Shown piece by piece: positions 4,756 through 37,000 of a DNA stretch of 64,000 nucleotides (the stretch's first letter is position 1; each line of letters begins with the position of its first letter). A model generated the notes under the pieces. That model was not told the origin of the DNA and searched no databases. It saw nothing but the letters and a program-made list of their open reading frames with translations. Origin of the DNA: a virus (lineage: Duplodnaviria > Caudoviricetes); IMG/VR virus record IMGVR_UViG_3300035562_000082, positions 53,595-117,594 of that record; one strand, 5' to 3'. The position numbers and the translations under genes are program-made.

Positions 4756-4784
4756 TTGCCTGAATGACATTCGGAAGCTACAAT
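4756..4784 (+). promoter_or_regulatory. sigma70-type promoter TTGCCT-N17-TACAAT
   Basis: Intergenic, correct spacing, upstream of the wHTH gene. Confidence 0.5.
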
Positions 4785-4812
4785 CGGGAGGAGCCGATGC
4801 ACGCGTCGCCGG

Positions 4813-5262: not shown

Positions 5263-5534
5263 TTACCGGGAGTCAGATCAACATTTGGACAATGCCGGGT
5301 TGTCCAGATCCATGGCGCGAGGTCGTGCAGATCCTGGAGGCGCGGCCGAAGATGGTGACGCTGAAGGTCAACGGCCGTAAGCCCGTGGTGGTCACCGACG
5401 AAGAGCAGATTGAGATCCTGCCGGCGGTGAAGGTCCAGGTAGGGGTGAAGGACGGTCTGAACATCAGCGGTAGTCGTTTGGCGTTTGATGCCCCGAGGTA
5501 CATTCAAATCCAACGGGTGCGAGAGCGTGCTTAA
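5244..5534 (+). CDS. CsrA/RsmA-like protein
   Basis: MLSIGVITGSQINI start and RLAFDAPRYIQIQR end resemble CsrA (ML-x-L-x-R...VRIG-x-x-AP-x-x-V-x-V-H-R), with an internal insertion. Confidence 0.5.
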   Translation: MLSIGVITGSQINIWTMPGCPDPWREVVQILEARPKMVTLKVNGRKPVVVTDEEQIEILPAVKVQVGVKDGLNISGSRLAFDAPRYIQIQRVRERA

Positions 5535-6389: not shown

Positions 6390-6827
6390 GTGGGCGGAAT
6401 TGATAGACAACGGTATTTAGTAGACCCTGCATATAGGGCTCATGTTACTGCTAATAACAGAGCTTCTTATGCTCGCAGACAAGCAATTAAAGGAAAGCTG
6501 GTTAAATCTATTGGTCCATGTGCGCCGCGTAAAAACGTTATTCCGTTGTCGGGCGTACAACATCATCATAGGCAGAGGTACAGTTTAGAACCTTGTGAAT
6601 TTGATCGTCTGTATGAAGAACAGGAAGGGAAGTGCGCTTGTTGTTTTTCGCTTTTTGTGGAACCGGGTAAACTCCATGTAGACCATGATCATGAATTGAA
6701 TAAAGTGCGAGGATTGTTATGCCATAAGTGTAATCGTGGTATTGGTCTACTTGGTGATACGTTAGAATCAGTTCAAAGGGCCGTTAGTTATTTATTGAAA
6801 TCCCAAGGAGTGGGAGTAAAAGAGTGA
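6390..6827 (+). CDS. Endonuclease VII-family HNH (homing) endonuclease
   Basis: Q-x-GKCACC...LHVDHDH...VRGLLCHKCNRGIG; visibly AT-richer than its flanks; GTG start chosen downstream of the promoter and AAGGAG. Confidence 0.85.
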   Translation: MGGIDRQRYLVDPAYRAHVTANNRASYARRQAIKGKLVKSIGPCAPRKNVIPLSGVQHHHRQRYSLEPCEFDRLYEEQEGKCACCFSLFVEPGKLHVDHDHELNKVRGLLCHKCNRGIGLLGDTLESVQRAVSYLLKSQGVGVKE

Positions 6828-7861
6828 AGTACCTGCCGGCCAATACTCTTGCGTATTACCAAGCGGCGCCGCAGTTTAAACCGCAGGTGTTGACCCATGT
6901 GCCGGTAGCGCGATTGGCCAAGGCCACGCAGATTTACCGGCAGGGTCATACCACGGAGGTACCACCTACGGAGGAAGCCGCCCGGTTCTATGCGTTGAAT
7001 CACTGTGCGTCGATCGTACGTGCGCGGTTTACCGTCAATGAGGTTCTGCCGGCCTGGGCGCAGGCGGTGATGCAGGTGTATCTTGAGACCACGATCAAGC
7101 AGTCTGAACGCCTACTGCACTACATGATGTGCATCATCACGCGCGAGGCCCGTAATCAAGGGCACATGACCGACCTTGGGGGGAAGGTTATGGCGGAGAT
7201 CGAACACCAGAGTCCGCAAATGCGGGAGTTCCTGGAACAGATCAAATCCACTGCTGAAATGCAGGCGGTGGGCTGGTATATGGAACAACCGCCAGCGGTA
7301 ACGGCCGAGCAGTATGTGCAGGCCATAGCCCACTTGTTTGACCACGGTAAGTGGAGCAGTAGCTACGGCGGGAAGAACTGGGGGAACATCGCGCGGACGG
7401 TGTTGAAGGTCTTGACCGGTGTAACGTCGTTGGAGACCTTGACCGACACCGCGTACACGTTGGCGCACAACGGTGGGCCGATGTTCAACAAGGGCATGCT
7501 CTATTCTTCTTCAGATGAAATCAAAGAACGGTTGTTGATGGTGTTGGACGTACAGCGTGGAGGTCAAGTACCGGAGTTGTTTTTGGATCAGGAGAATTGG
7601 GCGGGCCTTGTACGACCCCCGGGTATCGTGCAGATCGTAGAGCAAGTTCGTCACGAAGTACCTAAGGCCATTGGGCAGTACGTGGATTGGCAGAAGGTGA
7701 TCAACGCCAGTCCCGTGGGCGAGTACGACCACCAGTTGAGCAAGCAGCAGCAGAAGCACCCGGCGCCGCAGGTTCAGATGTTCATGGGCAAGCCCGCGAA
7801 GAAGGTCGGGGAGTTCCAGGTGTTTCCTGGGCAATCGGTTGAAGTGTACGAACGAGGATGA
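6824..7861 (+). CDS. Hypothetical protein of the phosphotransfer module
   Basis: 345 aa ORF with motif-like YGGKNWGNIA and AHNGGPMFNK segments; family not recognised. Confidence 0.7.
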   Translation: MKYLPANTLAYYQAAPQFKPQVLTHVPVARLAKATQIYRQGHTTEVPPTEEAARFYALNHCASIVRARFTVNEVLPAWAQAVMQVYLETTIKQSERLLHYMMCIITREARNQGHMTDLGGKVMAEIEHQSPQMREFLEQIKSTAEMQAVGWYMEQPPAVTAEQYVQAIAHLFDHGKWSSSYGGKNWGNIARTVLKVLTGVTSLETLTDTAYTLAHNGGPMFNKGMLYSSSDEIKERLLMVLDVQRGGQVPELFLDQENWAGLVRPPGIVQIVEQVRHEVPKAIGQYVDWQKVINASPVGEYDHQLSKQQQKHPAPQVQMFMGKPAKKVGEFQVFPGQSVEVYERG

Positions 7862-8601
7862 TCATGGGCAAGAAGTTGAGTTCGAGTTCGTACGCGCTAC
7901 CGGCCTGGGCAGAGGCGGAGATCGCCAGTGCGCCGATGGTGCGGTGTTACGAAACGCATCCTAAGTTATCGGTGACCGATGCCTCGACTGGTCATACGTA
8001 CTGGGTGTACGGTGGTAGCTGTAGCTGGCCGGTGGTGGACGACGCGGATATCTACATCGGACTTGATCGCAGCATGACCTTTGCCCATCAGTTGTACCCA
8101 TGGGATGAACCAAAGGTCGATCCGGTGATCGAGGTGCAGTATGTGATCGTGGACATGAGTGTGCCGGCTGATCCGTCGTCGTTCAAGCGGATGGTTAAGT
8201 GGATCTGTCAACAGATTCTTGTGGGCAAGAAGGTGCACGTGGGATGCATCGGTGGTCATGGTCGGACGGGCATGGTGCTGGCGGCCATCGTGTTCGAGCT
8301 TTCGGGCAATCATCAGGCCATTCTGTACGTGCGTGAGCACTACTGCAAGAAGGCCGTGGAGGCCAGTGAACAGATCGAGTTTCTTCATGAGCAATATGGC
8401 ATGGACAAGGCCCAGGCGACCAAGAGCGCGGATGGGAAGGGGTGGAAAGGCGAGGGGGCGTGGGATGGTCAGACCAAGCTGCCGGCGATCTGGCAAGGTA
8501 AGGCCCAGCCACTGCAATCAGTTGCATTTTCTAACGCCACTAGGGTGATTGATCCGACACCCAGCAAGAAATCCTTGTGGAATCCGATTGACAAACCCTA
8601 G
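7858..8601 (+). CDS. Second dual-specificity/PTP-family phosphatase
   Basis: HVGCIGGHGRTG CX5R loop, IVDMSVP, AVE-x3-Q. Confidence 0.85.
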   Translation: MIMGKKLSSSSYALPAWAEAEIASAPMVRCYETHPKLSVTDASTGHTYWVYGGSCSWPVVDDADIYIGLDRSMTFAHQLYPWDEPKVDPVIEVQYVIVDMSVPADPSSFKRMVKWICQQILVGKKVHVGCIGGHGRTGMVLAAIVFELSGNHQAILYVREHYCKKAVEASEQIEFLHEQYGMDKAQATKSADGKGWKGEGAWDGQTKLPAIWQGKAQPLQSVAFSNATRVIDPTPSKKSLWNPIDKP

Positions 8602-15488: not shown

Positions 15489-15962
15489 TTAATGCTGGCA
15501 GGTCGCGGGTAGGAACGGATAGGCCGCAACGATAGCACCAGCGGCCGTACCATTGGCAGCCGTGGACGTACCGCAGGTCCAGGTCACCGTACCATCGGCA
15601 TTGCCAACGCCGAAGATCCCCAGGAACTTGCCGTCAAGGGTCGAGCCCGTAGCGCCGACGGTCGTTACTACGCCAGCCACCGTGGCACTGGCTTGGTTGT
15701 AGGAAATGGCGGTCATGTACTTGACGTTGGACGGCAGGGTGGTGCTGACCGGGCTGGCGGTAGTCGCCGGGAACGCCCCTTGCGATTGATAGGCTTCCGT
15801 CAGCGCGATCTTCGCGGCATCCAGGAACGTGATTTCCTCGGTGACCTTTGAGCGCGTCAGGTAGTTTTGATACTGCGGCAGGGCGATGGCCGCCAGGATG
15901 CCGATGATGGCAACCACGATCATCAACTCGATGAGCGTGAAGCCCGTTTGTTTACGTTGCAT
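15489..15962 (-). CDS. pilA: Type IVa major pilin
   Basis: [34 protein letters not shown] class III signal with E5; C-terminal Cys pair (WTCG...ATCQH); GAGGGA RBS before ATG 15962. Confidence 0.93.
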
Positions 15963-16008
15963 AGTCTGTCCCTCAGGTTTCCGGCTTATTGCCGGCAGGA
16001 AGATAGTA

Positions 16009-16024
16009 AGCAATGACCGTGCCA
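16009..16024 (-). promoter_or_regulatory. sigma54 (RpoN) -24/-12 promoter of the pilin gene
   Basis: Minus strand reads TGGCACGGTCATTGCT, matching TGGCAC-N5-TTGC. Confidence 0.85.
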
Positions 16025-16077: not shown

Positions 16078-16135
16078 TGACAAATTGCGTCACCTTGAGT
16101 GACGTAGCTTGTCACGTGGGTGACGTACATTGGCA
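16078..16135. promoter_or_regulatory. Tandem TGAC-N7-GTCA palindromes, putative enhancer-binding protein (PilR-type) sites
   Basis: TGACAAATTGCGTCA (16078), TGACGTAGCTTGTCA (16100), TGACGTACATTGGCA (16121), phased at 21-22 bp upstream of the sigma54 promoter. Confidence 0.6.
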
Positions 16136-16195
16136 ATTGATTGCCCGGAGGGGTTGGGTGGCGTAGACTGCCGGCGTTCACACAATGGGGTGCGT

Positions 16196-18268
16196 ATGGC
16201 AATCAAGATCGAGGTCAAAGAACAGGTCAAGCTGCCGGAAAAAACTCAGAAGGCCGAGCCCAAGACGACGTTTATGCCCATGGTAATCGGGGGTGACACG
16301 TATTTGGTGCTCAGTCAGTCAAAGGTCGAGCTTGAGGACGAGTTCGCCAGCCTGTATTACACAACGCAAAATCAGTCAAACATTTTCTTGATGCCGCCGT
16401 TTGATCCCCAGGTGTTGTTGAACTTCGTGCAGACGAACAACGTGCTCAATCAGTGCATCGAGGCCATGGAGGTCAACGTCGATGCCACGGGACATGAGTT
16501 TGTGCCGTCGGAGGAAGCAGCGGCGAAGATCGAAAAAAAGCAGGAGGAGTGGAAAGCCCAGCAGATCAAGAAGCAGACCGATCGAGCTACGAAGGTCGCG
16601 GATTACCATTCAAAGCTGGATCAAGCGAATCATCAGTTTCAGACGGGTGCGACCATGGGCGACGACGCTACGCCTGTGCCCGTGGATTGGCCACCGCCGT
16701 TGGCGTACGAACCGAAATTACCGGACCCAGAGTTTGGAACCGGCATTGACCCCGAGGAGTTGATCAAGGCCAAGGCGTTCTTCAACGAGCCGTATCCCAA
16801 TCTGTCGTTCAGTAAGATCCGGCGGAAGTTGCGGCGAGAGCTTGAGAGCGTGGGCTACGCGTACTTGGAGATCCTACGAAACCTGGAGGGGGAGATCGTG
16901 GGTCTACGGAACATCGAGACCCATCAAACACGGATGGTCAAGCTCGATGCACCGATCATGGTGGAGAAGACCATCAGTCGAAACGGCAAGGACGTGAAGC
17001 TCCAGATGTGGGAACGTCAACGTCGATTTGCCCAACGGGTGGCGCTCAAGCAGCTTGTGTACTACCGGGAGTTTGGGACTGCCCGGCACGTCGATCGAAA
17101 CAACGGTAAGTGGGACATTCCGGCTACTGGGAGTGATTCCGGTTATCAAGTGGCGATCGAGAACCGGGGAACGGAGTTGATTGTCTTCGGCATTCATCCG
17201 GATGTTACGACCCCGTACTTTCTTCCACGGTGGATCAACGAGTTGCCGAGCGTCATTGGCAATCGTAAGGCCGAGGAATTGAATCTTGAGTTCCTGGACA
17301 GCGGGGGCATGCCGCCGGCAATCATCTTCGTGCAGGGCGGAACACTGGCAAAGGACGCGAGCGATCAACTGAAGATGTACCTGTCGGGCAAGAACAAGAA
17401 CAAGCATCGAGCGGTGGTGGTTGAGGCGCAGTCCAGTAGCGGGTCGTTGGAGAGCGCCGGCACCGTGCAGGTGAAGGTCGAGCGCTTTGGCGCCGAGCGT
17501 GCGATGGACGCGATGTTCACGAAGTACGACGCGCAGACCGAAGAGCACATTCGTGTGGGCTTCAGGATCCCGCCGTTGTTCTTGGGCAAGGCCGCTGACT
17601 ACAATTTTGCAACGGCTCAAACGGCGTACATGGTGGCCGAAGAACAGGTGTTTCAGCCTGAGCGCAATGCGTTTGACGAACAGATCAACAGCATGATCAT
17701 CCGCACCATGGGGTTCAAGACCCTGAGGTTCAAGAGCAATCCCGTGACGTTGGCCAGTGCCGCTGATCAGATCAACGCCATGACCCAGGCCAAGGGCACG
17801 GTCACCAACGAGTCGTTCGTGGAGGCCATTGAGGAGATCACGGGGTTTGAGCTTGAGCCCCAGCAGCAACAACAGCCACCGGGAGACCCGCAGGATCAAC
17901 CGCCGCCCAAGCCCGGGATGATGCCCAAGGGACCGAGCGTACAGGGTGGGGCAGTGGGGACCGCCGGGAACATCAGCGGGGCGTCTGATAGTGCAGGGGC
18001 TTTGCAGTCGAACACCGGGACCGCTAAGTACGCGCGGGAAGGTCGATCGGCCACGGAGTTGATTGACCTCGCACAGGACTATATGGCGATGAAGGGCCTG
18101 ACGAAGAAGCGTGACCTGGGGGCCGTCAGACAGGCGCAGGTGACGGTCGAGGTTTCGCGGTTGACCAAGGCCGAGCGCCGGGCGTTTGATTCGCTGGTGG
18201 CCATCAGCACCTACGGACAGGATGATCCGGATCTGGTTCGAGTGGTGGCCCATGCACACAGACGCTGA
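16196..18268 (+). CDS. Portal protein (PBSX-like) with Pro/Gln-rich insertions
   Basis: LESVGYAYLEILRN, YFLPRWI, F-x2-GGMPPAIIFVQGG, FRIPPLFLG...YNFATA...EQVFQPER; first gene of the head module. Confidence 0.85.
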   Translation: MAIKIEVKEQVKLPEKTQKAEPKTTFMPMVIGGDTYLVLSQSKVELEDEFASLYYTTQNQSNIFLMPPFDPQVLLNFVQTNNVLNQCIEAMEVNVDATGHEFVPSEEAAAKIEKKQEEWKAQQIKKQTDRATKVADYHSKLDQANHQFQTGATMGDDATPVPVDWPPPLAYEPKLPDPEFGTGIDPEELIKAKAFFNEPYPNLSFSKIRRKLRRELESVGYAYLEILRNLEGEIVGLRNIETHQTRMVKLDAPIMVEKTISRNGKDVKLQMWERQRRFAQRVALKQLVYYREFGTARHVDRNNGKWDIPATGSDSGYQVAIENRGTELIVFGIHPDVTTPYFLPRWINELPSVIGNRKAEELNLEFLDSGGMPPAIIFVQGGTLAKDASDQLKMYLSGKNKNKHRAVVVEAQSSSGSLESAGTVQVKVERFGAERAMDAMFTKYDAQTEEHIRVGFRIPPLFLGKAADYNFATAQTAYMVAEEQVFQPERNAFDEQINSMIIRTMGFKTLRFKSNPVTLASAADQINAMTQAKGTVTNESFVEAIEEITGFELEPQQQQQPPGDPQDQPPPKPGMMPKGPSVQGGAVGTAGNISGASDSAGALQSNTGTAKYAREGRSATELIDLAQDYMAMKGLTKKRDLGAVRQAQVTVEVSRLTKAERRAFDSLVAISTYGQDDPDLVRVVAHAHRR

Positions 18269-18428: not shown

Positions 18429-21400
18429 GTGGATCCCCGAGTACTGCTAAAGCTTGAAGCCGCGTTGGTTCGGCGGTTACGCGCAAGCTGGAAGCGCGAG
18501 AGCACTCCTGTTTACCTGAAGATCCAACAGGCGATCACCGATTGTGATTGGCCCACGGCCGTCCAGCAGGTGTACAAACTGGACATGACGCACGTGGGGG
18601 ATGAGAACCGCGAGTGGATCCGGCATATGCTGCTGTCATTCGCGGTTTTTGGTGCGAAGATGGCGAACAAGCGCGGACCGTTGTTCTTGAACGCCGGTAC
18701 GTATGATCAACGACTCGATCATATTACGGACATCATTTGTCAGTACTTTGAACATCGAGCAACGGCCTTGGTACAAGCCCGGGCATTGCAATCAATTGCC
18801 GAGGCCGAACGCGAGGCCAAGACCCAGGTGGCGTACAAGTTCGAGGAGGACGAAGCCCGGGATGTCCATGGACGCTGGACAGCCGGGGGTCCGTCGTTGT
18901 GGCACAGTGGGCAGTTTGAAGCCCAGATATCTAAGGTCGGTAAGACCTACGACAACAAGGCCGATATGGCGTTGTTGAGTAAACGTGGAGCGACGCTTGA
19001 GAAGAGGTCGTCTAAAATTCAACAGGATTTTGCTTATCAAGACGATAACCCAGAGGGGTTTGATCAAGAACTAGAGAAACTGAATGACCAGTGGACGGCG
19101 GTAGTGCTTGCTCAAGAAGGGCTCAAGCGTTTCCACGATAAACCAACGGAAACGATGTTCATTGCCCGGGACGGGGACCGACTGTCTGGGTTGGCCTATG
19201 GGTTTGTGCGGGGCGATCAAATGGAACTTGATCGTCTGGCGTCGTTTCAACGGGGGGCTGGGAGTAAGCTGTTGGTGGAGTTCGAACAGAATGCGCGCGA
19301 TCGTGGACTACAGTCGGTCGTATTGCACTCAACGCATTATGCTGAGGGGTTTTACACCGCACACGGTTACACGTCCAAGGGCAAGAACAATGAATATGGG
19401 ATTGTGGAGTTCGAGAAAGATCTGACGAAGACCAAGACCGTGAAGAAGATTGATCCAGAAGAAATTGCGTGCTTGGCAGTGCCGGCAGACTGGAAGCCCA
19501 GGGCTATCAAGGGCGATCTGCCAGGGCATGAGTTCCATGGTAATCAATGGACTCAAGCAGCCGGGCAGTTCAAGTACGATCCAGCGGCCAAAGCTTGGAC
19601 AGGGGGAACGGATGTTCAGCATCAGAGATTACGAGATCTACGAGTCCCCCCTGCATGGGCCAACGTCCGCCTTAACCCAGACGCTGACGCTGCTCTTCAA
19701 GCACTCGGAGTTGATGTTAAAGGCCGTACGCAGTACCTGTATAGTGCGGCCCACAGTGAACAAGCGGCGGCCGAAAAGTTTCAGCGGCTGAAGGACTTCA
19801 ATGCCGTAGCACCGAAGGCCATCAAGCAGGCGTTGGCCGATATGCAGAACAAACAACTGGCGTCGGAGAAGCGAGATGCGGCGGCCGTGGTGTACCTGAT
19901 TGGCAAGACCGGACTGCGTGTGGGATCGGACGCGGAGACCGGGGGTGCGGTCAAGGCCCATGGGGCAACGACGTTGTTGGGCCAGCACGTGACGTTGCTG
20001 GGCGATAAACTGTCGTTGGATTTCGTGGGTAAGAAGGGCGTGCAGATTCACAAGGAGTTGACGGACCCAAAGCTCGCACAGTATTTGAAGGGCAAGGTCA
20101 AGTCCATGGGCGATCGGTTGTTCAACACCACCGACAGTGCTGTACGAACGTATCTCAAGGACATCACGGGCGATCAGTTCAAGGTCAAGGACTTCCGGAC
20201 ATGGCACGGCACGTCCACGGCACTCCAGGAGTTGAAGGACCGACCGGTGCCGAAGACCGCCACGGAGTTCAAACGTGTTGTGTCGGAGGTTGCCAAGGTC
20301 GTGGCCAAGCACTTGGGTAACACTCCCGCTGTGGCGAAGAGCGCGTACATCGATCCGGCGGTTTGGGGTGGTTGGGGCGGGAAGTTCGCGGTGACCAAGC
20401 AGGAGGTTGATCAACCGTTGATAGACGAGTTCCTGGACACCCATCAGTACGATCAAACTGGAAACTGGCGGCTTTTGCCTGATGTTGAGGAAGAGGATCT
20501 GGAAAGCGCAATTAAAGACGACATGGGCAGTGCTGATCTTCAAACGGCGGGCGCACTCAATCCCATGCAGGCCCAAGCTCCGGTACAGAGCCGACGATCG
20601 TTGAGAAGACGCAGGCGACGCAAGGGCGAGACCAGGACGCTGTACGTCCATCGACCGGTGATCAACGGTCAGACGATTGTTGATTGGGCGAAGACCCAGG
20701 GATTTGAAACGTGTTTACCACTGGAGAAAATGCATGTCACAATCGCCTACAGCAAGCAGCCGGTGGACTGGAACGCCATGGGTGATGCTGACACCCGTAA
20801 TCTGCACGTGGATGATCAGGACGACCGCGAGGTCAAACCCTTGGGTAGCGATGGAGCGGTGGTGCTCAAGTTCGTGTCCAAGAAACTCCACGATCGGTGG
20901 AAACACCTGTGTGGCGCGGGAGCATCTTGGGATTACGAGGGTTACCAGCCACACGTTACCATCACTTGGGAAGCCCCGAAAGGACTTGAGTTATCAACGG
21001 TTGAGCCGTACACAGGACCGATTGACCTCGGCCCAGAACAGTTTGAAGAACTTGATGAAGATTGGGGGGACAAGGTAGTTGAGAAGGCCGATGAGACCGG
21101 TCGGTATGTGACGCCGTTTACGTCGTTCGCCGATGAAGGTGAAGGACTGGTGCAGATGGTCAGCAGTTTGAACAGCAGTCGCATGGCCACCTGGGGGTTC
21201 ACGGCCGAGGCCGATCAACTGGGGGTTGGACGTTATCGGTTGACGGCCGTCCTCGATGGGCGTACTAGTGAGTTCTGTCGGATAATCGACGGCCGGGTGT
21301 TTGACGTTGACGACGCACGACGCAAGGTCAATGAGGTACTGGCGGTTCAGGACCCGTCGGATCTTGAGCAGGTGCAGCCATGGCCTGATCAATCGAAGGC

Positions 21401-22955
21401 CGCGATTGCTGAGTACGAAGGTATGTCCGACGATGATCTTGTAGCCCTGGGATTGAACATTCCGCCATTTCACCCAAACGCAGTTTTTGCTGGGACTACG
21501 TTTGTTAGTTATGGGGCGTTAGATGAAATGATCGGGGCTGACTATCATGGTCCCGCGATTTTGATTAAAACCTCTGAGGGTGCAGAGTTTACCATCGGCC
21601 CTAATCACCCGATACTTACACAGTGTGGAATGCGGTTGGCTAATTGCTTGTGTGAAGGCGATTACTTGGTCTACGACACTAGGGTGGAAATGTTTGATTT
21701 TATTTCCAGTGGCCGATCCAATTCTAATTTCAAGAACGTTCCATTCGTTGAGGATGCTTTTGAGTCGTTGTTGCCGATGGGCAAATTGACGCGGGTTGCC
21801 GCTACCACTGACGATTTCCATGGCGACGGGGTATTCTGTGAGGGTGAAATCCAGATTGTAATTCCTGCAAACCGTTTGTTGTTTAAATTTGATTCCTTGG
21901 GCGTTGAGCATTTCCGAGAGTATGGTTTCATTAAACCCAATGCCTCTTTGGCTAATGTATCTACTGATGGCTCTGGCTACCCTGACATCGAGCCCATCTA
22001 TTTGTCCGCGCCGGGCAGCGTGGGCAGCAGATTGGCGGGTGTGTTTAGACTCCATCGAGTAGTGAGTGTAACGCGAACACAATATAAAGGTAAAGCATTT
22101 GATGCTACAACTGCCTCTGGTGTTTACAACTGTGACGGATTTGTAGTAAGTAACTGTCGTACGATGTGCGAAATGGTGGACGCCGATGAGGGTGAGCCCG
22201 AGGAGTTGGCGGTGACCGGCCCGTTGGACAAACAGCAGTCAACGGCCGAGGATTTTGCGGCCGTGGGGGTAGAGGTCACGGACGATCAGCTTGCGTATTG
22301 GAATGACGCTGTGGGGTTAGATCCTCAAAAGGCGTTGGAAACGATGTTCGCGGGTGATGTAGAGGCGTTGACCGCCAAGCTTGATGAAGGACAGGATCCA
22401 ATTGATGTAGACGAGGGTGGGAGTATCAGCTTTGTGGCCGCAGGCGATCTCGGAGACGGTACGTACGATCTTCAGAGTGTGTTCGATCCGTTTACCGGCA
22501 CGTTGTATTTGACCGACGCGGATTTCACGACCACCGATCCTCAGGTGGTGGCGGAGTTCATCAGCCGGGTGTTCGACGGCATGATCGACACCGGGATGTC
22601 CGCTGGGGCAACGGCCTTGGCCATTGACGTGGGGGATTCCGCGTATGAGTACGCGAAGATGGGTTTCAGACCCGATCCTGGTGATTGGGAGGACATACGG
22701 GGTAACGCCATGGACGCCCTGCAAAGCGGGGATCTCCAAGAGGTGTTCGACAGCCTGGACGATGATCAAAAGAATCAGGTGTTGAATACCTTGAACAACC
22801 CGGACGAACATGCGGTGCAGGATCTGGCGAACTTGCCGATTGAATTTCAAGGGCAGTCCGTGGGAGAATTGATATTGCAATCGGTGTCCGGGCAGTTCAC
22901 GTTGGATCTGACGGACGATGATGCGGTTGAGCAGGCAAAGAGCTATTTTGAGTGA
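18429..22955 (+). CDS. MuF (SPP1 gp7-like) head morphogenesis polyprotein: GNAT, topoisomerase IB, Acb1-like 2H phosphodiesterase, intein-split MuF, acidic C-terminal domain
   Basis: GNAT QRGAGSKLL...AEGFYTAHGY; TopIB GRTQYLY, GLRVG, KDFRTW, HLGNTPAVAKSAYIDP; 2H HVTIAYS and HVTITW; MuF LDGRTSEFC...PPFHPN/CRT. Confidence 0.88.
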   Translation: MDPRVLLKLEAALVRRLRASWKRESTPVYLKIQQAITDCDWPTAVQQVYKLDMTHVGDENREWIRHMLLSFAVFGAKMANKRGPLFLNAGTYDQRLDHITDIICQYFEHRATALVQARALQSIAEAEREAKTQVAYKFEEDEARDVHGRWTAGGPSLWHSGQFEAQISKVGKTYDNKADMALLSKRGATLEKRSSKIQQDFAYQDDNPEGFDQELEKLNDQWTAVVLAQEGLKRFHDKPTETMFIARDGDRLSGLAYGFVRGDQMELDRLASFQRGAGSKLLVEFEQNARDRGLQSVVLHSTHYAEGFYTAHGYTSKGKNNEYGIVEFEKDLTKTKTVKKIDPEEIACLAVPADWKPRAIKGDLPGHEFHGNQWTQAAGQFKYDPAAKAWTGGTDVQHQRLRDLRVPPAWANVRLNPDADAALQALGVDVKGRTQYLYSAAHSEQAAAEKFQRLKDFNAVAPKAIKQALADMQNKQLASEKRDAAAVVYLIGKTGLRVGSDAETGGAVKAHGATTLLGQHVTLLGDKLSLDFVGKKGVQIHKELTDPKLAQYLKGKVKSMGDRLFNTTDSAVRTYLKDITGDQFKVKDFRTWHGTSTALQELKDRPVPKTATEFKRVVSEVAKVVAKHLGNTPAVAKSAYIDPAVWGGWGGKFAVTKQEVDQPLIDEFLDTHQYDQTGNWRLLPDVEEEDLESAIKDDMGSADLQTAGALNPMQAQAPVQSRRSLRRRRRRKGETRTLYVHRPVINGQTIVDWAKTQGFETCLPLEKMHVTIAYSKQPVDWNAMGDADTRNLHVDDQDDREVKPLGSDGAVVLKFVSKKLHDRWKHLCGAGASWDYEGYQPHVTITWEAPKGLELSTVEPYTGPIDLGPEQFEELDEDWGDKVVEKADETGRYVTPFTSFADEGEGLVQMVSSLNSSRMATWGFTAEADQLGVGRYRLTAVLDGRTSEFCRIIDGRVFDVDDARRKVNEVLAVQDPSDLEQVQPWPDQSKAAIAEYEGMSDDDLVALGLNIPPFHPNAVFAGTTFVSYGALDEMIGADYHGPAILIKTSEGAEFTIGPNHPILTQCGMRLANCLCEGDYLVYDTRVEMFDFISSGRSNSNFKNVPFVEDAFESLLPMGKLTRVAATTDDFHGDGVFCEGEIQIVIPANRLLFKFDSLGVEHFREYGFIKPNASLANVSTDGSGYPDIEPIYLSAPGSVGSRLAGVFRLHRVVSVTRTQYKGKAFDATTASGVYNCDGFVVSNCRTMCEMVDADEGEPEELAVTGPLDKQQSTAEDFAAVGVEVTDDQLAYWNDAVGLDPQKALETMFAGDVEALTAKLDEGQDPIDVDEGGSISFVAAGDLGDGTYDLQSVFDPFTGTLYLTDADFTTTDPQVVAEFISRVFDGMIDTGMSAGATALAIDVGDSAYEYAKMGFRPDPGDWEDIRGNAMDALQSGDLQEVFDSLDDDQKNQVLNTLNNPDEHAVQDLANLPIEFQGQSVGELILQSVSGQFTLDLTDDDAVEQAKSYFE
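21480..22154 (+). mobile_element. Intein (225 aa, Ala1, ends Ser-Asn, Cys+1) inserted in the MuF HPN|CR motif
   Basis: Removing AVFAGT...FVVSN restores PPFHPNCRT; block B TIGPNHPILT; block F/G YKGKAFDATT...VVSN/C; AT-richer than flanks. Confidence 0.88.
21519..22082 (-). CDS. DUF559/Vsr-like PD-(D/E)XK endonuclease nested antisense within the intein
   Basis: ETILSEMLNAQGIKFKQQ...YNLDF...VAMEIVSG...RLKSILNEWNVLEI follows the E...Q...Y-x-x-DF...A-x-E...W-x-V pattern; ORF lies wholly inside the intein; alternative ATG at 22055. Confidence 0.65.
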   Translation of the reverse strand: MCSRYTHYSMESKHTRQSAAHAARRGQIDGLDVRVARAISRYISQRGIGFNETILSEMLNAQGIKFKQQTVCRNYNLDFTLTEYPVAMEIVSGSGNPRQFAHRQQRLKSILNEWNVLEIRIGSATGNKIKHFHPSVVDQVIAFTQAISQPHSTLCKYRVIRADGKLCTLRGFNQNRGTMIVSPDHFI

Positions 22956-23833: not shown

Positions 23834-24138
23834 TGGGTCGTAGGGTTCAACCGAATGCCGATGGGTGGTTGCCGAATTTGGAGCCCGGTGATTACGGACG
23901 CATTGCAGAGGCCCATCGTGCGGCGTACGTTGGTCGTTCTGATTGGCACGGTTGTACTCCCAATGGGCACTTGTGCAATCTTGGAGGCCACGAGGTCGTG
24001 GAACATGAGGACGGAACGATCACCGCCAGTCCGTCGATCCTGGTCAGCAGCAGTCGATGGGACGAACAACAGCAGACCATGGTGAGGTTCCAGGCGTGGC
24101 ATGGGTATCTTGAGAAGGGAATTTGGAGGGAAGTATGA
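23830..24138 (+). CDS. DUF6527-like protein
   Basis: HEDGTITASPSIL...WHGYLEKGIW. Confidence 0.5.
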   Translation: MMGRRVQPNADGWLPNLEPGDYGRIAEAHRAAYVGRSDWHGCTPNGHLCNLGGHEVVEHEDGTITASPSILVSSSRWDEQQQTMVRFQAWHGYLEKGIWREV

Positions 24139-24416
24139 GTGTTTATGTGGACGATATGAAAGCCAAGTTTGGGCGGATGATCATGTGCCACATGATCGCC
24201 GATGACGATCAAGAACTGCGGGCTATGGCCGATAAGATAGGGGTGGCCCAGCGCTGGCACCAGGGCGATCACTTTGACATCTGCTTGGCCAAGCGTGCGT
24301 TGGCCGTGCAGTTTGGGGCAAAGGAGATCACATGGCGCGAGGCCGGGAAAATCATCATGGCCAGGAGGCGCGCAAATGCAGTTGCTGGAGTTGGAACCCC
24401 AGTTTCTACGGTATGA
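24135..24416 (+). CDS. DUF4031 family protein
   Basis: VYVDD...MCHMIAD...EL-x-AMA-x-KIG...WHQGDHFDI...R-x-LAV-x-x-GA. Confidence 0.8.
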   Translation: MSVYVDDMKAKFGRMIMCHMIADDDQELRAMADKIGVAQRWHQGDHFDICLAKRALAVQFGAKEITWREAGKIIMARRRANAVAGVGTPVSTV

Positions 24417-25195: not shown

Positions 25196-25561
25196 TTGAC
25201 CAAAGCCAAAGCTGGAAATGTTCCGTTTGTACTGGTAATTGGAACGTGGTGGGGAGTTTATCAGTCTGGCCATCAAGCAGCAGCGGCACAAGCAGAATCC
25301 GATATGCTCACAGCGGTGGCGAATTTTGGTGATCCAACGGTCATTGGCTACAGTATTATGACCGATGGAGGTGCAGGGGCTGCTGGGTCAAACACATACT
25401 CGTGGATTACAGGTAATTCATCAACAGCATCACCAAATGGTAGCGGGAATTCCGATACACATGTTTCTTCCGTTAATTCGCATATGACTTATCGAGGCCA
25501 GTTGTATTTCGCCCGACGAATAGCACATGCAGTTCATTCAATCTTTAGTCGATTGAATTGA
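25196..25561 (+). pseudogene. Possible C-terminal fragment of an SGNH-hydrolase-like domain
   Basis: Weak TTG start; WITG...GNSD...SHMTYRGQLYFARRIA resembles the SGNH C-terminal block; no GDS motif; AT-rich. Confidence 0.3.
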
Positions 25562-25590
25562 TGGCCGTGCAATCAATTGCCAGGAGCCGA

Positions 25591-26178
25591 ATGATGTCCA
25601 AGTTGGTGTTCAAGGCCGACCAGCCTGAGCAGCATCTGGCGTACGGCGAGGTCTACGCGCCCGATCGCCCGGATGCCCAGGGTGAGTTCATGCGCGCCGA
25701 TCACATTCAGAAAATGGCGCATGAGTTTGTGCGCAAGGGCCGCATGCAGCAGATTGACGTGATGCACAACAATCAGCTTGTAGATGGCTTGTGCATCGTT
25801 GAGTCGTTCATCGCGCGTAAAGGCGACCCAGATTTTATTGAGGGCTCATGGGTCATCGGCATGCACGTGCCGGATGAAGATCTATGGTCGCAGATCAAGA
25901 AGGGTGAGATCAACGGTTTTAGCATGGAGGCGTTGGTCACGCGTCACCCGCAGGATGTACAGATTGACCTTCCGCCCGTGGTCACGGGTATGACCAGCAA
26001 GAGCGAGGACCACGAGCACAAGTTCTTTGTCAGCTACAAGGACGACGGGTCATTTCGAGGTGGAATAACGGATTTTGTGAACGGTCATCAGCATAAGATC
26101 TTGGCCGGCACACACACTGAGGAAGTGGCGGGGCACAGTCATCGGTTCTCGTCCGTGGACGTGCTCAAAATCGTGTGA
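25591..26178 (+). CDS. XkdF-like prohead serine protease with His-rich C-terminal repeats
   Basis: YGEVYAPD-x-PDAQGE, IDVMHN, VESFIA, GSWV, IKKGEINGFSME; HEH/HQH/HSH repeats. Confidence 0.85.
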   Translation: MMSKLVFKADQPEQHLAYGEVYAPDRPDAQGEFMRADHIQKMAHEFVRKGRMQQIDVMHNNQLVDGLCIVESFIARKGDPDFIEGSWVIGMHVPDEDLWSQIKKGEINGFSMEALVTRHPQDVQIDLPPVVTGMTSKSEDHEHKFFVSYKDDGSFRGGITDFVNGHQHKILAGTHTEEVAGHSHRFSSVDVLKIV

Positions 26179-26219
26179 CGTTGTTCGGTGCTCGGTGGAG
26201 CGCTAGACTCGACGGGCTC

Positions 26220-27749
26220 ATGGGACGGATCACCGCCAAGCTCAAGGAACTACGCAACGTCGATGTGGCGATTGTGTCGTTGGTTGATCGTGCGGCTTCG
26301 CGCATGCCCATTCGGATTTTGAAGCGCGATAAGGACCCACAAATGATTGACCTGTCGGGCATTGGTCGAACGCTTAAACGCGCGGTGCAGAAACACGAAC
26401 CTCCGGCGATTGCGGGGTTCATCGTGTTGGACAATCCAGACCCGGTGTTCATGGAGAACGTGCAGAAGGCCGTTAAGGATCACGGGTTTTCGATTGAACA
26501 CGTGACCAAGCACGATGATGGCACGGTGGTGTTCGCGCAGGACGATCAACCGGTTGAAGGCACGCTCCTGCGGTTGAGCGATCAACTGCTGGTGGTGATG
26601 AAGGGTTTTGATCAATATAGCGAGGATCTGCGGGAGAACGCGGACTTCAATGAACTGGTGGCGGCCAATGGGTTTTTCGCCGGATTGGCCGGCGCTATTC
26701 AAGCGCTGTACAGCACGATCTGCGCGGCGTTGGAAGACGCGGATTCACCGATGGACGCTGGCCCGGATGTAAAGGACGCGCTGGGCAAGTTCAGTGGGTA
26801 CGTGCAGACCTTGGTTTCGAGCTTGCCGTCCAACGCCTTCAAGTTGGACCACGTGCTTCAAGACCTTGCTCGGAAGGCCGCCGAGGCGAAGAATTCGCCT
26901 ATCGATCTGAAGAAGATCCCGACTACCTGCCCGAAGGGCATCAGTCAGAACGACTGGGATGCACTGGATGACACGGCTAAGCTCAAATGGGTGGCCGACA
27001 GCACAAATTCTCCTGCCCCTGGAACCACACAGAAGGCTGATATGAAGAAAATCGACAGCAATACGATGTTGGAAATCGAGGAGTTGATGAAGCAACCTCC
27101 TCTGGGCAGCGACGGCACCAAGTGGGTGAGTATGTCCCTGGGTGACAAGGTCGAGGCTTGGAAAGCCAGCTTTGTGAACGCCAACAACCAGGGTGCTCAA
27201 GACGGCAAAAACGGCACTCAAGGTGGAGTGCAGATCGACGTAAGCAATCCAACGGCCAAAGCGCCGTCGGTCAAGGCCGGGGATAAGGGCGCGGTAACCG
27301 ACCCAACCCAAGGAGGTACGACGGCCGTCAAAGCCGACAACGGTGATGACGATGATGATGGTCCTGAAAAACCGGAGGACATGTCCCCGGAAGACTGGGA
27401 TGCGCTGTCCGATGAGGACAAGATGAAGGCCAGCAAACGCGATCACCGGAGGAAGCGCGATGCGGCGTTGACCGCCGTGGTCTCCAGTGTCGCGGCGCTG
27501 GCTCAACAGGTCACGGGCTTGACCACGAAGTTCGATGAACAGGTCAAGGCCATGACCACCAAGATTGACGACGCGGCTCGGAAGTCCGATGATGCACTGG
27601 CAAAAATCAAGAGCGTGGTTCCCGCTGCACCACCGGCTGATGATCGTCCGGCCAATGGCGGGGGTAAGACCCCGGCTCGGAAAGCCGATGACGATCCGCG
27701 TTCAGGGGCTTTTGATACGGCGTTTTTGCCGAATCGTGGACGCAGGTAG
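26220..27749 (+). CDS. Capsid scaffolding/assembly protein
   Basis: Lies between protease and capsid; VSLVDRAA N-terminal motif; acidic low-complexity and coiled-coil regions. Confidence 0.7.
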   Translation: MGRITAKLKELRNVDVAIVSLVDRAASRMPIRILKRDKDPQMIDLSGIGRTLKRAVQKHEPPAIAGFIVLDNPDPVFMENVQKAVKDHGFSIEHVTKHDDGTVVFAQDDQPVEGTLLRLSDQLLVVMKGFDQYSEDLRENADFNELVAANGFFAGLAGAIQALYSTICAALEDADSPMDAGPDVKDALGKFSGYVQTLVSSLPSNAFKLDHVLQDLARKAAEAKNSPIDLKKIPTTCPKGISQNDWDALDDTAKLKWVADSTNSPAPGTTQKADMKKIDSNTMLEIEELMKQPPLGSDGTKWVSMSLGDKVEAWKASFVNANNQGAQDGKNGTQGGVQIDVSNPTAKAPSVKAGDKGAVTDPTQGGTTAVKADNGDDDDDGPEKPEDMSPEDWDALSDEDKMKASKRDHRRKRDAALTAVVSSVAALAQQVTGLTTKFDEQVKAMTTKIDDAARKSDDALAKIKSVVPAAPPADDRPANGGGKTPARKADDDPRSGAFDTAFLPNRGRR

Positions 27750-27779
27750 AGACCGGGACCTCACTTTAAACAAGGACGC

Positions 27780-28736
27780 ATGATGAACAACCAGGAATTG
27801 ATTCAAAAAGCCGACATGGCGCTATCGGACCTTGCAACGGCCGGCCGGTTGAACCCCGAACAGACCGATCAATTCATTCGCACGTTGATCGATCAACCAA
27901 CGATGCTGGCGGTGTGCCGGACTGTGGCCATGACCAGTTTCGAGATGAAGATCAACAAACTGGGATTCGGCAGTCGAATCATGCGTCCCCCGGTGTTTAA
28001 CTCCGACGGCAGTAACGCCGCGTTGGCATCGGCCGATCGCGTTAAGCCCGACCTGGGGCAGGTGAAGCTCGATACCCAAGAGGTGATGGCCGAGATCCAG
28101 CTTCCGTACCAAGTGATCGAGGACAACATCGAGCGCGGGAACATCAACGTACCGTTGCAAACTGGGGCCGGAGGTCTGCATCAGACGATCGTGGATCTGA
28201 TTGCCGAACGAGCGGCGCTGGACCTGGAAGAACTGGGCATTCGTGGCGACACCACGTCGGCCGATACGTATCTGGCGTTGCTCAATGGCTTCATGAAGCT
28301 GGCGACGGCGAATGTCGTGAACGTCGGTGGGGCGTTCGACAAGAACGCGGTCAAGGCCGCGCTGAAGACCATGCCCACGCGGTATCTACGGAACCGCGCG
28401 GCGCTCCAGCATTTCGTGTCCGTGGACAACGAGACGGAGATCCGTGATCAGTACGGCAGTCGGCAGACGGCCCTGGGTGATCAGCAGGTGCAGGGGGTGT
28501 TGCCGGTGTACATCTTCGGCAGCCGCTGCACGCCCGTGGCGCTGATGCCGGGTGATCAAGGGCTGTTTTCGGACCCAATGAACTTCATCTTCGGTATCCA
28601 GCGGAACATCATGATCGAGTACACGAAGGACATTCGTGCCCGGGTGTTCATCGTGGTGCTGACCTGTCGGGTGGCGTTCAATATCGAAGAAGTCAACGCC
28701 GTCACCAAGTACACTGGCCTTCAAGGCAGCCGCTAG
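27780..28736 (+). CDS. Major capsid protein (HK97 fold)
   Basis: 318 aa; GRLNPEQ-x2-FI, IEDNIE, DLEELGI-x-GD, NFIFGIQRNI; followed by a terminator. Confidence 0.88.
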   Translation: MMNNQELIQKADMALSDLATAGRLNPEQTDQFIRTLIDQPTMLAVCRTVAMTSFEMKINKLGFGSRIMRPPVFNSDGSNAALASADRVKPDLGQVKLDTQEVMAEIQLPYQVIEDNIERGNINVPLQTGAGGLHQTIVDLIAERAALDLEELGIRGDTTSADTYLALLNGFMKLATANVVNVGGAFDKNAVKAALKTMPTRYLRNRAALQHFVSVDNETEIRDQYGSRQTALGDQQVQGVLPVYIFGSRCTPVALMPGDQGLFSDPMNFIFGIQRNIMIEYTKDIRARVFIVVLTCRVAFNIEEVNAVTKYTGLQGSR

Positions 28737-33882: not shown

Positions 33883-34073
33883 TAATCTCGTCTGGACATC
33901 GTGAAACGGAGGTCCTATCCTGGACGCCCAGGAAACTTGATACCGTGGTGTCGTTGGTGAACGATCGAAAGACCGTGGACGTACAAAACACGGCGGTGGC
34001 AATGCGCGTGGCCTTTGGCGCGGATAAGGATCAGTGGCTCAAGTTCTTGCACGGGGAAGAGGATGGCGACTGA
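33732..34073 (+). other. Programmed -1 frameshift site C CCA AAA (33732-33738) and gpT-like extension
   Basis: X XXY YYZ heptamer in the zero frame; the -1 frame is open to 34073 and overlaps the tape measure start. Confidence 0.7.
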
Positions 34074-37000
34074 ACAAGCGGAATTGCAGATCATCCTGAA
34101 GGTCGTGTCCAACGCCAAAGAGGCGTTGGATGAACTGGCTGCACGGTTTACAGAATTGAGTGGTCAGCTTGGGAAGGTCGGTAAATCCGCCGAGGGTTTG
34201 GGTGAGGTCGGGGAGCACGCTCATGCGGTAGGCCAGCATCTGGAGGAAACGGGCGAGCATGCGGACACGCTGTTGAGTAAGTTCAACGAGTTACGAGAAG
34301 GCGCGTTGTTATTGGTCAAGAGCTTTCTGGCGTTGGAGGCCGTACGGCTCTTTCGTGAGTTTGCAGAAGAACAAGCGGCGATCGAAGTCATGGTCGTGGG
34401 CATGAAGAACATTGGAGAAGCCGCTGGTTATACCTCGGAGCAGATGACCAAGCTGGTGAAGGACCTCCAGGAGTTCGACATCACCAAGGGCGTGGCGGCC
34501 AAGAACGTTGGGACGCTGATCGCCAATCAACTGTCGCCGGAGAAAATTTCAGAAATTGGTGCGGCGGCACGTAAACTGGCGCTGGAATCCGGTCGCTCAG
34601 TGGACGAGGTGTTTACGGTCTTGGCCCGGGCTGTGGCCACGGGTCAGACGCGGTTGTTGACCCGACAATTCCAGATCCTTGGGAAGTTCGATGCCACACA
34701 GGCGTTGCACGTGGAGGCCCAGCGTCGGTTGGCGGCGTCGGGCTCAAGTTTCATTTCCGCGAGTGAACGACCGGAGATCACAGCGGGAGCGATTGTTCGA
34801 CGGATCAACGAGCGTGTGCCGGAAACCGCGATCAAGGAAGGTGCGGATACCGCAGAGGGGCGGTTGAAGCACCTGGGCGTGGTGTGGAAGGAGTTCAAGG
34901 AAAGTCTGGGTGAAGGCACGGAGACGGTATTTGGGGGTGTGATCGCGGGTTTGACGGCCATTGTTGAGGCCATGAAGGAATTTGTTGAGTCCCTGGGTAA
35001 AGGTACCTCGGTGTCCAAGACCCTGGGTGAGGCCATGAGGAGCCTGGGCGAGGCCATTGCCGGGGCCATTAAGTTCGTGACCGCGCACAAGGATGCGATT
35101 AAGGTACTGGCCGAGTTCGTAGGCATTTTGATAGCCTTTGATTTAGCCGGGTGGTTCTTGAAGGTCGCAACCGCTGGTGCTGGTGCAGCCGGCATAGCGA
35201 CCTTTGGTACGGCCTTGAAGTACGTGGTTCAAATGGGGTTGTTGGCCGGTGGGCCGGTTAGGGCCGCGTTGGCGGGCTTGACGTTCACGGTCAGAACGTT
35301 GTTCGTGGCCCTGGGTGGTTGGGTGACCGTTGCGGCGTTGGTGATCACTGGGCTGATCGAACTGTATAACCGAAGTTCCGTTGTTCAAGCGGCGATCAAA
35401 GCCCTGGGTACGGCGTTTGTTGAGTTCGGTGATTGGCTGTGGGATACGGTGGTTACACGGCTTAAACTGGTGGTCGATGGATTTCGGTCATTATGGGAGG
35501 CCGTGGCCACCCGTAGTACGGCCCCGCTCAAGGCGTTTGTAAAGGAAGTGGGGGATGAGCTTGATCGACTACAGAAGAAAAAAGAAGAGGCAGAACGAAA
35601 AACCGGTGCTCGGTATCGTGGGGCTAAATTAACGGCCGAAACCCCAGCAGGACCGGTTGAGCCCTATGGGGGCGAAGCTCATGGGCGGTTTGTTCCCACT
35701 GTACAACAGCCTAAACGAGAGAAAACCGATGAAGAACTAGCAGAAGAAGCGGCTAGAGACGCGGCAAATGCCAAGGCCATAGCCGATAATCGATTGAAAA
35801 TCGCTGAAGCAGCATTGGCGGAAGAAAAGCGGATGGCCGCTCGTGCTCAGGCGGATGATGAGTTTCTGATGGCCCGTGGGTTGATCGCCGTTGAGAATTT
35901 TTATCAGCATCGACTGGCGGCGGTAAAGGCCGGGTTAGATGCAGAGTTGGCGGTTAACCGTGCTCAACGGAATAAGATCGATGCTGAAGAGGCGGCATAT
36001 CGTGCGTCTCCGGCGTTCAAGGGCGGCGCAACAGCCGATGCACGGATTACGGAGTTTCAGACTCAACGGCAGGCGTTGCTGGCCAAGGACAAACTGGCGC
36101 GGGCAAAGGCCAATGATGATGAGGTTAAGCTCGTGGAGACCGGACAAACGAAGATCCGTGATCTTGAGCGTAAAGCCAGTGAGGAGCGGAATAAACTGGC
36201 GCTCAAGGACACGACGGATCTTGGAGCACGGCTCGAACAAATCCGTGCCAAGTACGAGAAGCTGAATGAAGAGGCGGGGGATAACGAGCGTTTGAAGGCC
36301 GCAAATGCTCTCAATGAGGCGTACGATCGTCAACAGGCGGGGATCGAGACGCTGACTGCCCGGTGGGAGCAGTACAAGAACGTGCAAACGGCGGTGCTGG
36401 ATCTTCAGACTGCGGAAGTGGCGTTGGCGCAGAAGACCTTCCAGTTGACCAGCTTGGGTGCTCAAGAGGCGAACAACGCGATTCTAGAACGACGGATAGT
36501 CCTTGAGCAACAACATCTTCAGGAATTGGAGAATCTGCGACAGCACTATGTGGCAGAGGGCGCGGCCGGGGTCAAGGCCGCCAAGGACACGGAGGTGGAG
36601 ATGCTGAAAACCCGGGCGGCGATTCTTGGGCTGCAACAGCAGATCAAGACCGCAGGGGAAGAGATTGCCAAGAGCTTTAGTGATAATTTGACGGGCACGT
36701 TGGACAAGATCATCGAGCGCACGGAGCACGCAACGCAAGCGTGGAAGGACTTCGGACGGGCGCTGGTAGCTACCATCACGCACAAAGCCACTACGGGGTT
36801 TGCTGAGAGCATTACCAATGCCTTAGCCGGTGGGGGGACTAAAGGCGGAGAACCAGCAGGTGGAGGGATCTTTGGGTTCGTTGGAGGTCTGTTGGGCGGT
36901 GGGGGTAAGAAGCCCACGGGTGCACCGGGAGATCCGCTGGAGGTGGTTATGGGCGTGCCCAAAGTCGCGGGTGCGGCGGATGCGACTACGAAGCTGGCGG

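Follow-up and report, generated by a model that had tools for sequence, protein, structure and literature searches.

Phage Mu gpF and SPP1 gp7 form part of the head structure (PMC5512222, introduction). The same paper, by Iyer, Burroughs, Anand, de Souza and Aravind (2017), defined the polyvalent proteins of phages and described 2H phosphoesterase domains fused to MuF or portal proteins as well as RimI-like GNAT domains; its authors predicted that the 2H domains break down defence nucleotides and that the MuF- or portal-fused 2H and GNAT domains are injected. Type IB topoisomerase (TopIB) is not mentioned in its main text. A related group, the MuF polymorphic toxins of temperate phages, is accompanied by a downstream immunity gene (Jamet et al. 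2017, PMC5576092). Here we describe a gene for a protein, P0001, at positions 18429..22955 of a 64-kb window (64,000 nucleotides, the whole stretch of DNA analysed), which is the right-hand part of the 117,594-bp IMG/VR virus record IMGVR_UViG_3300035562_000082, an uncultured soil phage that CheckV rates as complete. Judged by its domain matches, P0001 appears to be a polyvalent protein in a virion-gene context, joining a GNAT, a TopIB and an Acb1 domain to a MuF core and a C-terminal domain of GNAT-like predicted fold.

We favour, with reasonable though far from full confidence, the reading that P0001 is a polyvalent MuF-type minor head protein, associated with the portal, that carries enzymes inside the capsid for the start of the next infection. 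The case is built on intact catalytic residues, a position immediately after the portal gene, synteny with Stenotrophomonas phage Summit, cargo that is swapped among orthologues, fusions of TopIB relatives to portal and MuF proteins and of Acb1 domains to portals, a K/AD motif shared with other head proteins, and the published precedent for 2H and GNAT. In common with the polyvalent proteins already defined (PMC5512222), P0001 unites several unrelated enzyme domains in a single MuF-fused chain whose gene lies among virion genes. It differs in that the cargo follows the N-terminal region and precedes the MuF core, the core holds an intein, and a TopIB is added. The likeness to the MuF toxins (PMC5576092) lies in a MuF carrier in the DNA-packaging module, a variable effector and proposed delivery by the phage; those proteins, however, bear one C-terminal toxin with an immunity gene and come mainly from Firmicutes prophages, whereas P0001 bears three internal enzymes of non-toxin type. 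As a polyvalent MuF protein P0001 is ordinary; it is notable for its TopIB cassette and its unusually rich architecture.

An earlier, sequence-only reading of this DNA had proposed a virion-delivered kit made of three complete enzyme domains placed after the N-terminal region and before the MuF core. The three domains give above-threshold Pfam matches where that reading had placed them, look complete and keep their catalytic residues, and both the domains and their place in the head module are supported here, but the idea itself, with 2H and GNAT, had already been published in 2017 as polyvalent proteins. Its account of the architecture was also incomplete, leaving out the intein in the MuF motif, the acidic peptide and the GNAT-like C-terminus. 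The gene and its parts are as follows.

18429..22955 (+): whole gene of the polyvalent MuF-type head protein P0001; single uninterrupted 1,508-aa frame with a GTG start
18429..18833 (+): N-terminal region conserved in the MuF lineage (residues 1-135); 37-47% identity to the N-termini of P0002-P0005, P0007, P0008 and the Summit homologue
18831..18881 (+): junction/tag 1 (residues 135-151), with Lys, an acidic stretch and an RDxxGRW motif; identified by motif recurrence
19086..19391 (+): cargo 1, GNAT acetyltransferase (residues 220-321); PF13673
19503..19550 (+): junction/tag 2 (residues 359-374), with Lys and a GHEFHGNQW-type tag just before TopIB; common to P0002, P0003 and P0043
19617..20363 (+): cargo 2, bacterial-type topoisomerase IB (residues 397-645); Top1B_N_bact at residues 397-429, Topoisom_I at residues 444-638
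20397..20516 (+): acidic 'partner' peptide after TopIB, in frame (residues about 657-696), ending at the AIK/DD junction; alignment A3
20634..21071 (+): cargo 3, Acb1-type 2H phosphodiesterase (residues 736-881), preceded by an Arg-rich linker; PF23474
21078..21092 (+): VEK/AD junction (K886/A887), candidate site for the head protease where the MuF core begins; best supported of the junctions
21087..21479 (+): MuF/SPP1-gp7 core, N-extein part (residues 887-1017), ending PPFHPN; 42% identity to the Summit homologue
21480..22154 (+): Ala1 intein of 225 aa (residues 1018-1242), with a Ser-Asn end before Cys+1; splits HPN/CRT of the MuF motif
21519..22082 (-): antisense open reading frame (ORF) in the intein, 187 codons, candidate Vsr-like homing endonuclease; weak DUF559 match (E 0.02)
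22155..22376 (+): C-extein start, where CRTMC completes the MuF motif, and acidic linker (residues 1243-1316); aligns to Summit CRTVC and is kept in P0002-P0012
22377..22952 (+): conserved C-terminal domain (residues 1317-1508); GNAT-like predicted fold

The Summit homologue, a protein of 400 aa, matches both the N-terminal region and the MuF core of P0001. The core itself matches PHROG minor-head families at E values from 1.9e-7 to 1e-4 and is 41% identical to P0026, a carrier of PF04233. The MuF motif PPxHPNCR(C) is present, with PPFHPN before and CRTMC after an insert of 225 aa, and is uninterrupted in Summit and in P0002; the MuF profile match ends where the insert begins. Orthologues P0002-P0012 share residues 1-135, the core (886-1017) and the C-terminus with P0001, whereas the middle cargo differs and comprises ART-PolyVal, ADP-ribosyl exotoxin, InPase or other 2H domains, or nothing recognisable; within this group the GNAT-TopIB block is found in P0001 only. 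Constant ends and core around a varying middle are the pattern expected of an exchangeable slot.

The TopIB domain passes its Pfam cut-offs (PF01028, 91.7 bits against 23.7; PF21338, 36.8 against 27; Pfam E 6e-26) and matches the Deinococcus radiodurans enzyme in PDB entry 2f4q at E 5e-33. Residues R497, K535, R590, N631 and Y640 align on the catalytic pentad of that enzyme and are invariant in all 52 of the fused TopIB domains in a MAFFT alignment. Y640, the Tyr of SAYIDP that the sequence-only reading had picked out as catalytic, aligns with the catalytic Tyr of the D. radiodurans protein, which we take to be Tyr289. An AlphaFold2 (AF2) model of residues 376-700 has a predicted local distance difference test score (pLDDT) above 90 over most of the domain, and its best Foldseek matches are 2f4q and 3m4a (E 4e-15 to about 5e-15) and variola TopIB (TM 0.69-0.72), with human TopIB also among the best. 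Searches with domain profiles and with Foldseek, which that reading had proposed as a check, accordingly recover GNAT, TopIB and Acb1 by Pfam and TopIB by Foldseek as well. With its catalytic residues intact, the domain is predicted to relax supercoiled DNA by way of a 3'-phosphotyrosyl intermediate.

The two-domain fold and the R-K-R-N-Y pentad are those of the D. radiodurans (2f4q/3m4a) and variola (2h7f) enzymes, but in P0001 the TopIB is a module of a tailed-phage head protein, with a conserved tag before it and a conserved acidic peptide after it. The TopIB of poxviruses is carried in the virion core. Stand-alone TopIB proteins have been described in the jumbo phages Lu11, PaBG and NCTB (Iyer et al. 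2021, PMC7824862); these too are phage-encoded members of the tyrosine-recombinase superfamily, but they have 24-28% identity to the P0001 domain and are separate genes among replication and recombination functions, with no virion fusion. Among cultured phages (50,697 records) we found no TopIB fused to a head protein and seven weak stand-alone matches, five of them in records of these three jumbo phages.

We identified 47 further clusters with this TopIB at 33-55% identity, in proteins of 829-2,639 aa, of which 21 also carry a portal (PF04860, PF06381, PF06074) or MuF (PF04233) domain, the TopIB lying mostly at the extreme C-terminus; other partners in these large proteins are ART, Zeta toxin, Acb1/2H, InPase, NUDIX and Hint. 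Among shorter metagenomic proteins there are 1,022 TopIB relatives at E <= 1e-20, many on contigs of 50-170 kb, and a locus search with a single TopIB query returned three loci only. A protein of very similar architecture, P0034, comes from another data set and combines TopIB, ADP-ribosyl toxin, MuF, Acb1 and Hint. The loci retrieved place TopIB within head modules. At loci L008 and L009 the gene order is terminase, portal-TopIB, S78 protease and capsid protein. At L004 and L005 a terminase gene is followed by an 816-aa TopIB protein with an unassigned N-terminus, and then by a Zeta-toxin gene. In a 94-kb relative (L007, 1912-10544) the portal is followed by overlapping consecutive genes for an 847-aa protein in the MuF position that ends in TopIB, an ADP-ribosyl-toxin-like protein, ART-PolyVal and Zeta-toxin/InPase, so that, compared with P0001, the kit occurs in both fused and split forms. 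The earlier claim that a virion-borne TopIB is especially unusual holds for the literature, where our search found nothing on TopIB as phage MuF- or portal-borne cargo (most subscription journals lay outside its coverage), but not for sequence collections, in which 47 large fused proteins and more than 1,000 shorter relatives show that such a TopIB is not rare.

The attachment of most relatives' TopIB to the extreme C-terminus of portal proteins speaks for a second interpretation, in which the enzyme works at the capsid, tethered to portal or MuF, to relieve torsion during packaging or ejection or to process genome ends, while Acb1 and GNAT may still be delivered. The C-terminal end of the portal lies beside the DNA channel, and the acidic peptide would then serve as a regulator. 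TopIB nevertheless occurs as a stand-alone gene and beside genes for plainly host-directed effectors (ART, Zeta toxin), which agrees better with a cargo role, and we know of no packaging system that needs a topoisomerase; we therefore regard a capsid-acting TopIB as rather unlikely.

The acidic peptide that follows TopIB has invariant L, T and Y residues, then W and an acidic run (alignment A3). Its genetic attachment varies: at L006 it is a separate 44-codon ORF (6764-6895) overlapping the stop of a stand-alone TopIB, at L007 and L008 it forms the N-terminus of the gene that follows TopIB, and at L005 a copy opens a later gene (4532-5434), with the Zeta-toxin gene lying between. An acidic element directly after TopIB, as a small ORF (L006) or the start of the next gene (L007, L008), recalls the MuF toxins with a downstream immunity gene (PMC5576092), and Zeta-toxin and ART genes do occur in the neighbourhood of TopIB relatives. 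It could accordingly be proposed that TopIB, and perhaps GNAT, is a MuF-borne toxin that damages or halts host DNA transactions, the acidic peptide being the immunity factor of the producing cell. This strikes us as improbable: the in-frame fusion in P0001 means that peptide and enzyme would travel together, TopIB religates DNA and has no intrinsic toxicity, and the toxins of published MuF proteins are C-terminal and belong to temperate phages of Firmicutes.

It is tempting to speculate that tailed phages widely package active TopIB as a three-part cassette of N-terminal tag, enzyme and acidic safety peptide, carried on portal or MuF, injected with the genome and acting on DNA topology in the first seconds, and joined here to an anti-CBASS nuclease and an acetyltransferase (CBASS, cyclic-oligonucleotide-based antiphage signalling system). 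We put this forward tentatively, being not quite persuaded of it ourselves.

The Acb1 domain matches PF23474 at 131.9 bits against a cut-off of 27 (E 1.9e-38), over profile positions 1-143 of 144. Both HxT motifs, H769/T771 and H842/T844, are in place, as they are in 14 of 14 fused relatives. In P0002 and P0004 an Acb1 likewise lies directly before the core, in one continuous alignment with P0001. Compared with Acb1 itself (PF23474; 7t26/7t27), the P0001 domain is a full-length profile match with both HxT motifs, whereas the Acb1 of T4 is a free protein. Matches were obtained both to Acb1 (7t26, E 2e-8) and to the portal C-terminus of cyanophage Pam3 (8hds, E 3e-24), in which, at the sequence level, a virion protein likewise carries an Acb1-like domain, one that goes undiscussed in the Pam3 paper. 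Portals of further cultured phages also bear fused Acb1 domains. From these matches the domain is predicted to cleave CBASS cyclic oligonucleotides in the manner of Acb1, and its role as a pre-made anti-CBASS activity is the best-grounded part of the proposed virion-delivered kit.

Evidence for the GNAT cargo is a marginal pass of its profile (PF13673, 26.9 bits against a cut-off of 23.6) and a G-x-G-S CoA loop that aligns weakly (E 0.02-0.09) to the GNATs 1y9w and 8heh. Its sole close relative among the proteins collected is the GNAT of P0037 (38% identity), a protein that also carries ART-PolyVal and TopIB. The C-terminal domain, with 32-46% identity across ten orthologues, is modelled at pLDDT 77-95 in an AF2 model of residues 884-1508. 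Foldseek with this 625-aa model gave no match at E <= 0.001, and no score in an ESM Atlas search with the C-terminal domain reached 0.8; in a VIA re-alignment all 50 of the 50 best rows were acetyltransferases, at Z 6.8-9.0, a range that indicates a GNAT-like fold and is no proof of activity. The usual CoA loop is not obvious in this domain. Since its C-terminus is predicted to be GNAT-like, P0001 may hold two acetyltransferase-type domains.

All four Lys junction motifs listed in the sequence-only reading are present, at residues 135-140, 359-374, 694-698 and 884-888. The first two belong to one recurrent tag class, consisting of Lys, an aromatic residue or Gly, an acidic residue and then RDxxGRW or GHEFHGNQW. 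The form K-[FY]-[DE]...RDxxG[RK]W occurs one to three times in P0008, P0009, P0010, P0012 and P0019, and 24 of 50 relatives have some tag of the class no more than 45 aa upstream of TopIB, compared with 8.5% of control windows. A literature search on the tag motifs found nothing relevant, and neither did one on the specificity of the XkdF protease. The fourth motif, VEK/AD, is of another kind: 10 of 11 orthologues have K-A-D in front of the core. In this phage K/AD recurs in the capsid protein (residue 10), in the protease (residue 19) and, in three copies, in the scaffold, and Summit has it at the corresponding places in its capsid protein and protease. P0001 contains a second KADMAL string at residue 177, which matches exactly the one at the N-terminus of the capsid protein. 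In all, KAD occurs seven times in the head proteins against 1.8 expected, and four times in the other 48 ORFs against 2.9 expected, a pattern noticed post hoc. Because the motif recurs at the N-termini of both capsid protein and protease, it is plausible that the head protease cuts at K/AD before the core.

Every module of P0001 is in fact flanked by candidate cleavage sites, as would also be expected if P0001 were a polyprotein made late, with enzymes that work inside the producing cell, for instance against abortive-infection signalling, and that are cut off and left unpackaged, with only the MuF part entering the head. Anti-CBASS activity, however, is most useful early, and in the relatives fusion to the portal C-terminus forces incorporation. 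Head proteases are generally active only inside the procapsid, so that cleavage implies prior packaging. We give a late polyprotein little credence.

The insert in the MuF core is an Ala1 intein, neither of class 1 nor with the Cys of class 3, and by its sequence it would splice. It is absent at the exact point in Summit (HPG-CRTVC) and in P0002, and a homologous insert occupies the same site in Rhodococcus phage REQ3 (39% identity), P0017 and P0018. A search of 1.84 billion cluster representatives returned 2,823 relatives; among the best 150 of these, both ends could be mapped in 106, of which 100 follow HPN, 104 start with Ala and 106 end with Asn followed by Cys, as in P0001 (Asn1242, with Cys1243 at +1). 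This precise HPN/CR site, together with the Ala start and the Asn+Cys end in mapped relatives, argues for an Ala1 intein targeting the MuF motif. Class 1 was rejected because the first residue is Ala and not Cys, Ser or Thr, and class 3 because the block-F Cys of the WCT triad is lacking, Asp standing in an A-F-D-[AS]-T block in 4 of 4 aligned members (block assigned by eye). C-terminal cleavage without splicing was judged unlikely: P0017 has just 12 residues after the element, and splicing would rebuild HPN-CRC.

Evidence for a Hint fold is weak (PF14890, E 0.021), and the insert is unfolded in the AF2 model of residues 884-1508 (pLDDT 26-50). Inteins have been described in actinophage minor capsid proteins whose endonucleases, LAGLIDADG or VSR-like, are encoded antisense and whose in-frame middle cannot be folded (Gosselin, Arsenault and Gogarten, bioRxiv 10.1101/2025.01.02.630785), so that both the low pLDDT and the antisense ORF at 21519-22082 fit. 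The P0001 element shares with them an intein in a MuF-type protein, the REQ3 site, a non-folding in-frame middle and an antisense ORF; it differs in belonging to a phage with Stenotrophomonas-phage-like head genes and in lying within a polyvalent protein.

All genes around the P0001 frame are on the plus strand. The head module runs from portal through the P0001 gene and a few small ORFs to protease, scaffold and capsid, and in Summit the order is the same: portal, MuF-like gene, protease, scaffold, capsid.

16130..18268 (+): portal, directly upstream of the P0001 gene; phrog_12 portal, E 6e-24
25558..28736 (+): XkdF-type head protease, putative scaffold and major capsid protein together; PF14550 E 9e-28, phrog_1623 E 6e-91
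25558-26178 (+): XkdF-type serine protease, head module
between the protease and capsid genes (+): putative scaffold, 524 aa, head module
27780-28736 (+): major capsid protein, head module
34015-37695 (+): tape measure protein, downstream of the capsid gene

The GTG start of P0001 is supported by orthologues P0003, P0004 and P0007, which align from residue 1. TopIB and Acb1 each have one match in the 117.6-kb record, in both cases within P0001. In public sequencing runs the sequence occurs in a single DNA run, a soil metagenome and the probable source, and no RNA run is listed. Four tiling Logan contigs from that run cover the gene at an even depth of ~13x with zero mismatches; as they stem from what is probably the source sample, they do not count as independent support. 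They break at 19884-20018 (about 19.9-20.0 kb, within TopIB) and at 21608-21623 (about 21.6 kb, within the intein), and neither break is bridged, which would be compatible with an assembly chimera or with a decaying, functionless fusion. Yet depth is equal on both sides without mismatches, the N- and C-terminal parts belong to one orthologue family, P0034 is very similar though from other data, and all catalytic residues are intact; we find such an origin barely credible. The stretches where the contigs break may have words in common with further copies of TopIB and of the intein in that soil sample.

Several other genes in the window deserve mention in their own right. A complete type IV pilin gene lies at 15489-16013 (-), between the DNA polymerase and portal genes (Pfam Pilin, E 2e-12; N-terminal methylation motif, E 9e-11), and a DUF4031 protein is encoded within the head module at 24123-24416 (+; E 3e-25). 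Further upstream, 2785-4755 (+) encodes a protein of 656 aa that combines a pyruvate-phosphate-dikinase ATP-binding domain with a PEP-utilising mobile domain, uncommon in phage, and 7858-8601 (+) has a weak match, under the cut-off, to dual-specificity phosphatases ('Swiss Army Knife' or polymorphic-toxin PTPase, E 5e-5). In the tail region, 49257-50714 (+) encodes MptE-like and methyltransferase domains; like genes adjoin the head module at L008 and L009.

Some observations weigh against P0001 as a capsid-internal enzyme carrier. The earlier identification as a MuF head protein agrees with the head-module position, the motif and weak PHROG and PF04233 matches, but the core falls under the curated Pfam and NCBIfam thresholds (PF04233, 20.7-22.6 bits against 29.6; TIGR01641, 24.9-28.2 against 39.65). 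For the three Lys junctions other than VEK/AD, the evidence is recurrence of the tags alone, with no capsid-type K/AD match. In the model of residues 376-700 the acidic peptide has a pLDDT of 35-55, so that its docking on TopIB is not readable from the model. The phage is uncultured and comes from one soil sample only, and a freshly injected linear genome offers TopIB no obvious substrate.

If P0001 is nonetheless a head-borne carrier, we infer splicing, packaging, release by the protease, ejection and actions in the new host from precedent in related families, in the following course. The 1,508-aa precursor would be made late, and the Ala1 intein would splice out and restore the HPN-CR motif of MuF. 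Together with the conserved regions at either end, the MuF core would bring the protein into the procapsid near the portal, where the XkdF-type head protease would probably cut after the junction Lys residues (K886/AD being the most credible), freeing GNAT, TopIB with its acidic peptide, and Acb1 inside the head; the freed modules would then leave with the DNA. In the new cell, before phage genes are expressed, Acb1 could hydrolyse cyclic oligonucleotide alarm signals and so blunt a CBASS-type defence, TopIB could relax supercoils of the incoming genome or of the host chromosome without ATP, in analogy to the core TopIB of poxviruses, and GNAT could acetylate some host protein. It may be that the acidic peptide holds TopIB off DNA until release.

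Enzymes that are made in advance and injected let a phage act before its first gene is read. The activities known to be carried by tailed phages in this way include ADP-ribosylation (T4 Alt), anti-restriction (P1 Dar) and transcription (N4 vRNAP). A packaged Acb1, if P0001 is delivered as we propose, would disarm CBASS signalling from the first moment of infection, and a packaged TopIB would extend this short list to the control of DNA topology. The TopIB clade comprises more than 1,000 proteins, many of them on portal or MuF, and we did not find it covered in the literature searched; the tag, the acidic peptide and the K/AD motif offer testable handles on how such cargo is loaded and released. 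An injected TopIB cassette would, if confirmed, be the bacterial-virus counterpart of the poxvirus core topoisomerase.

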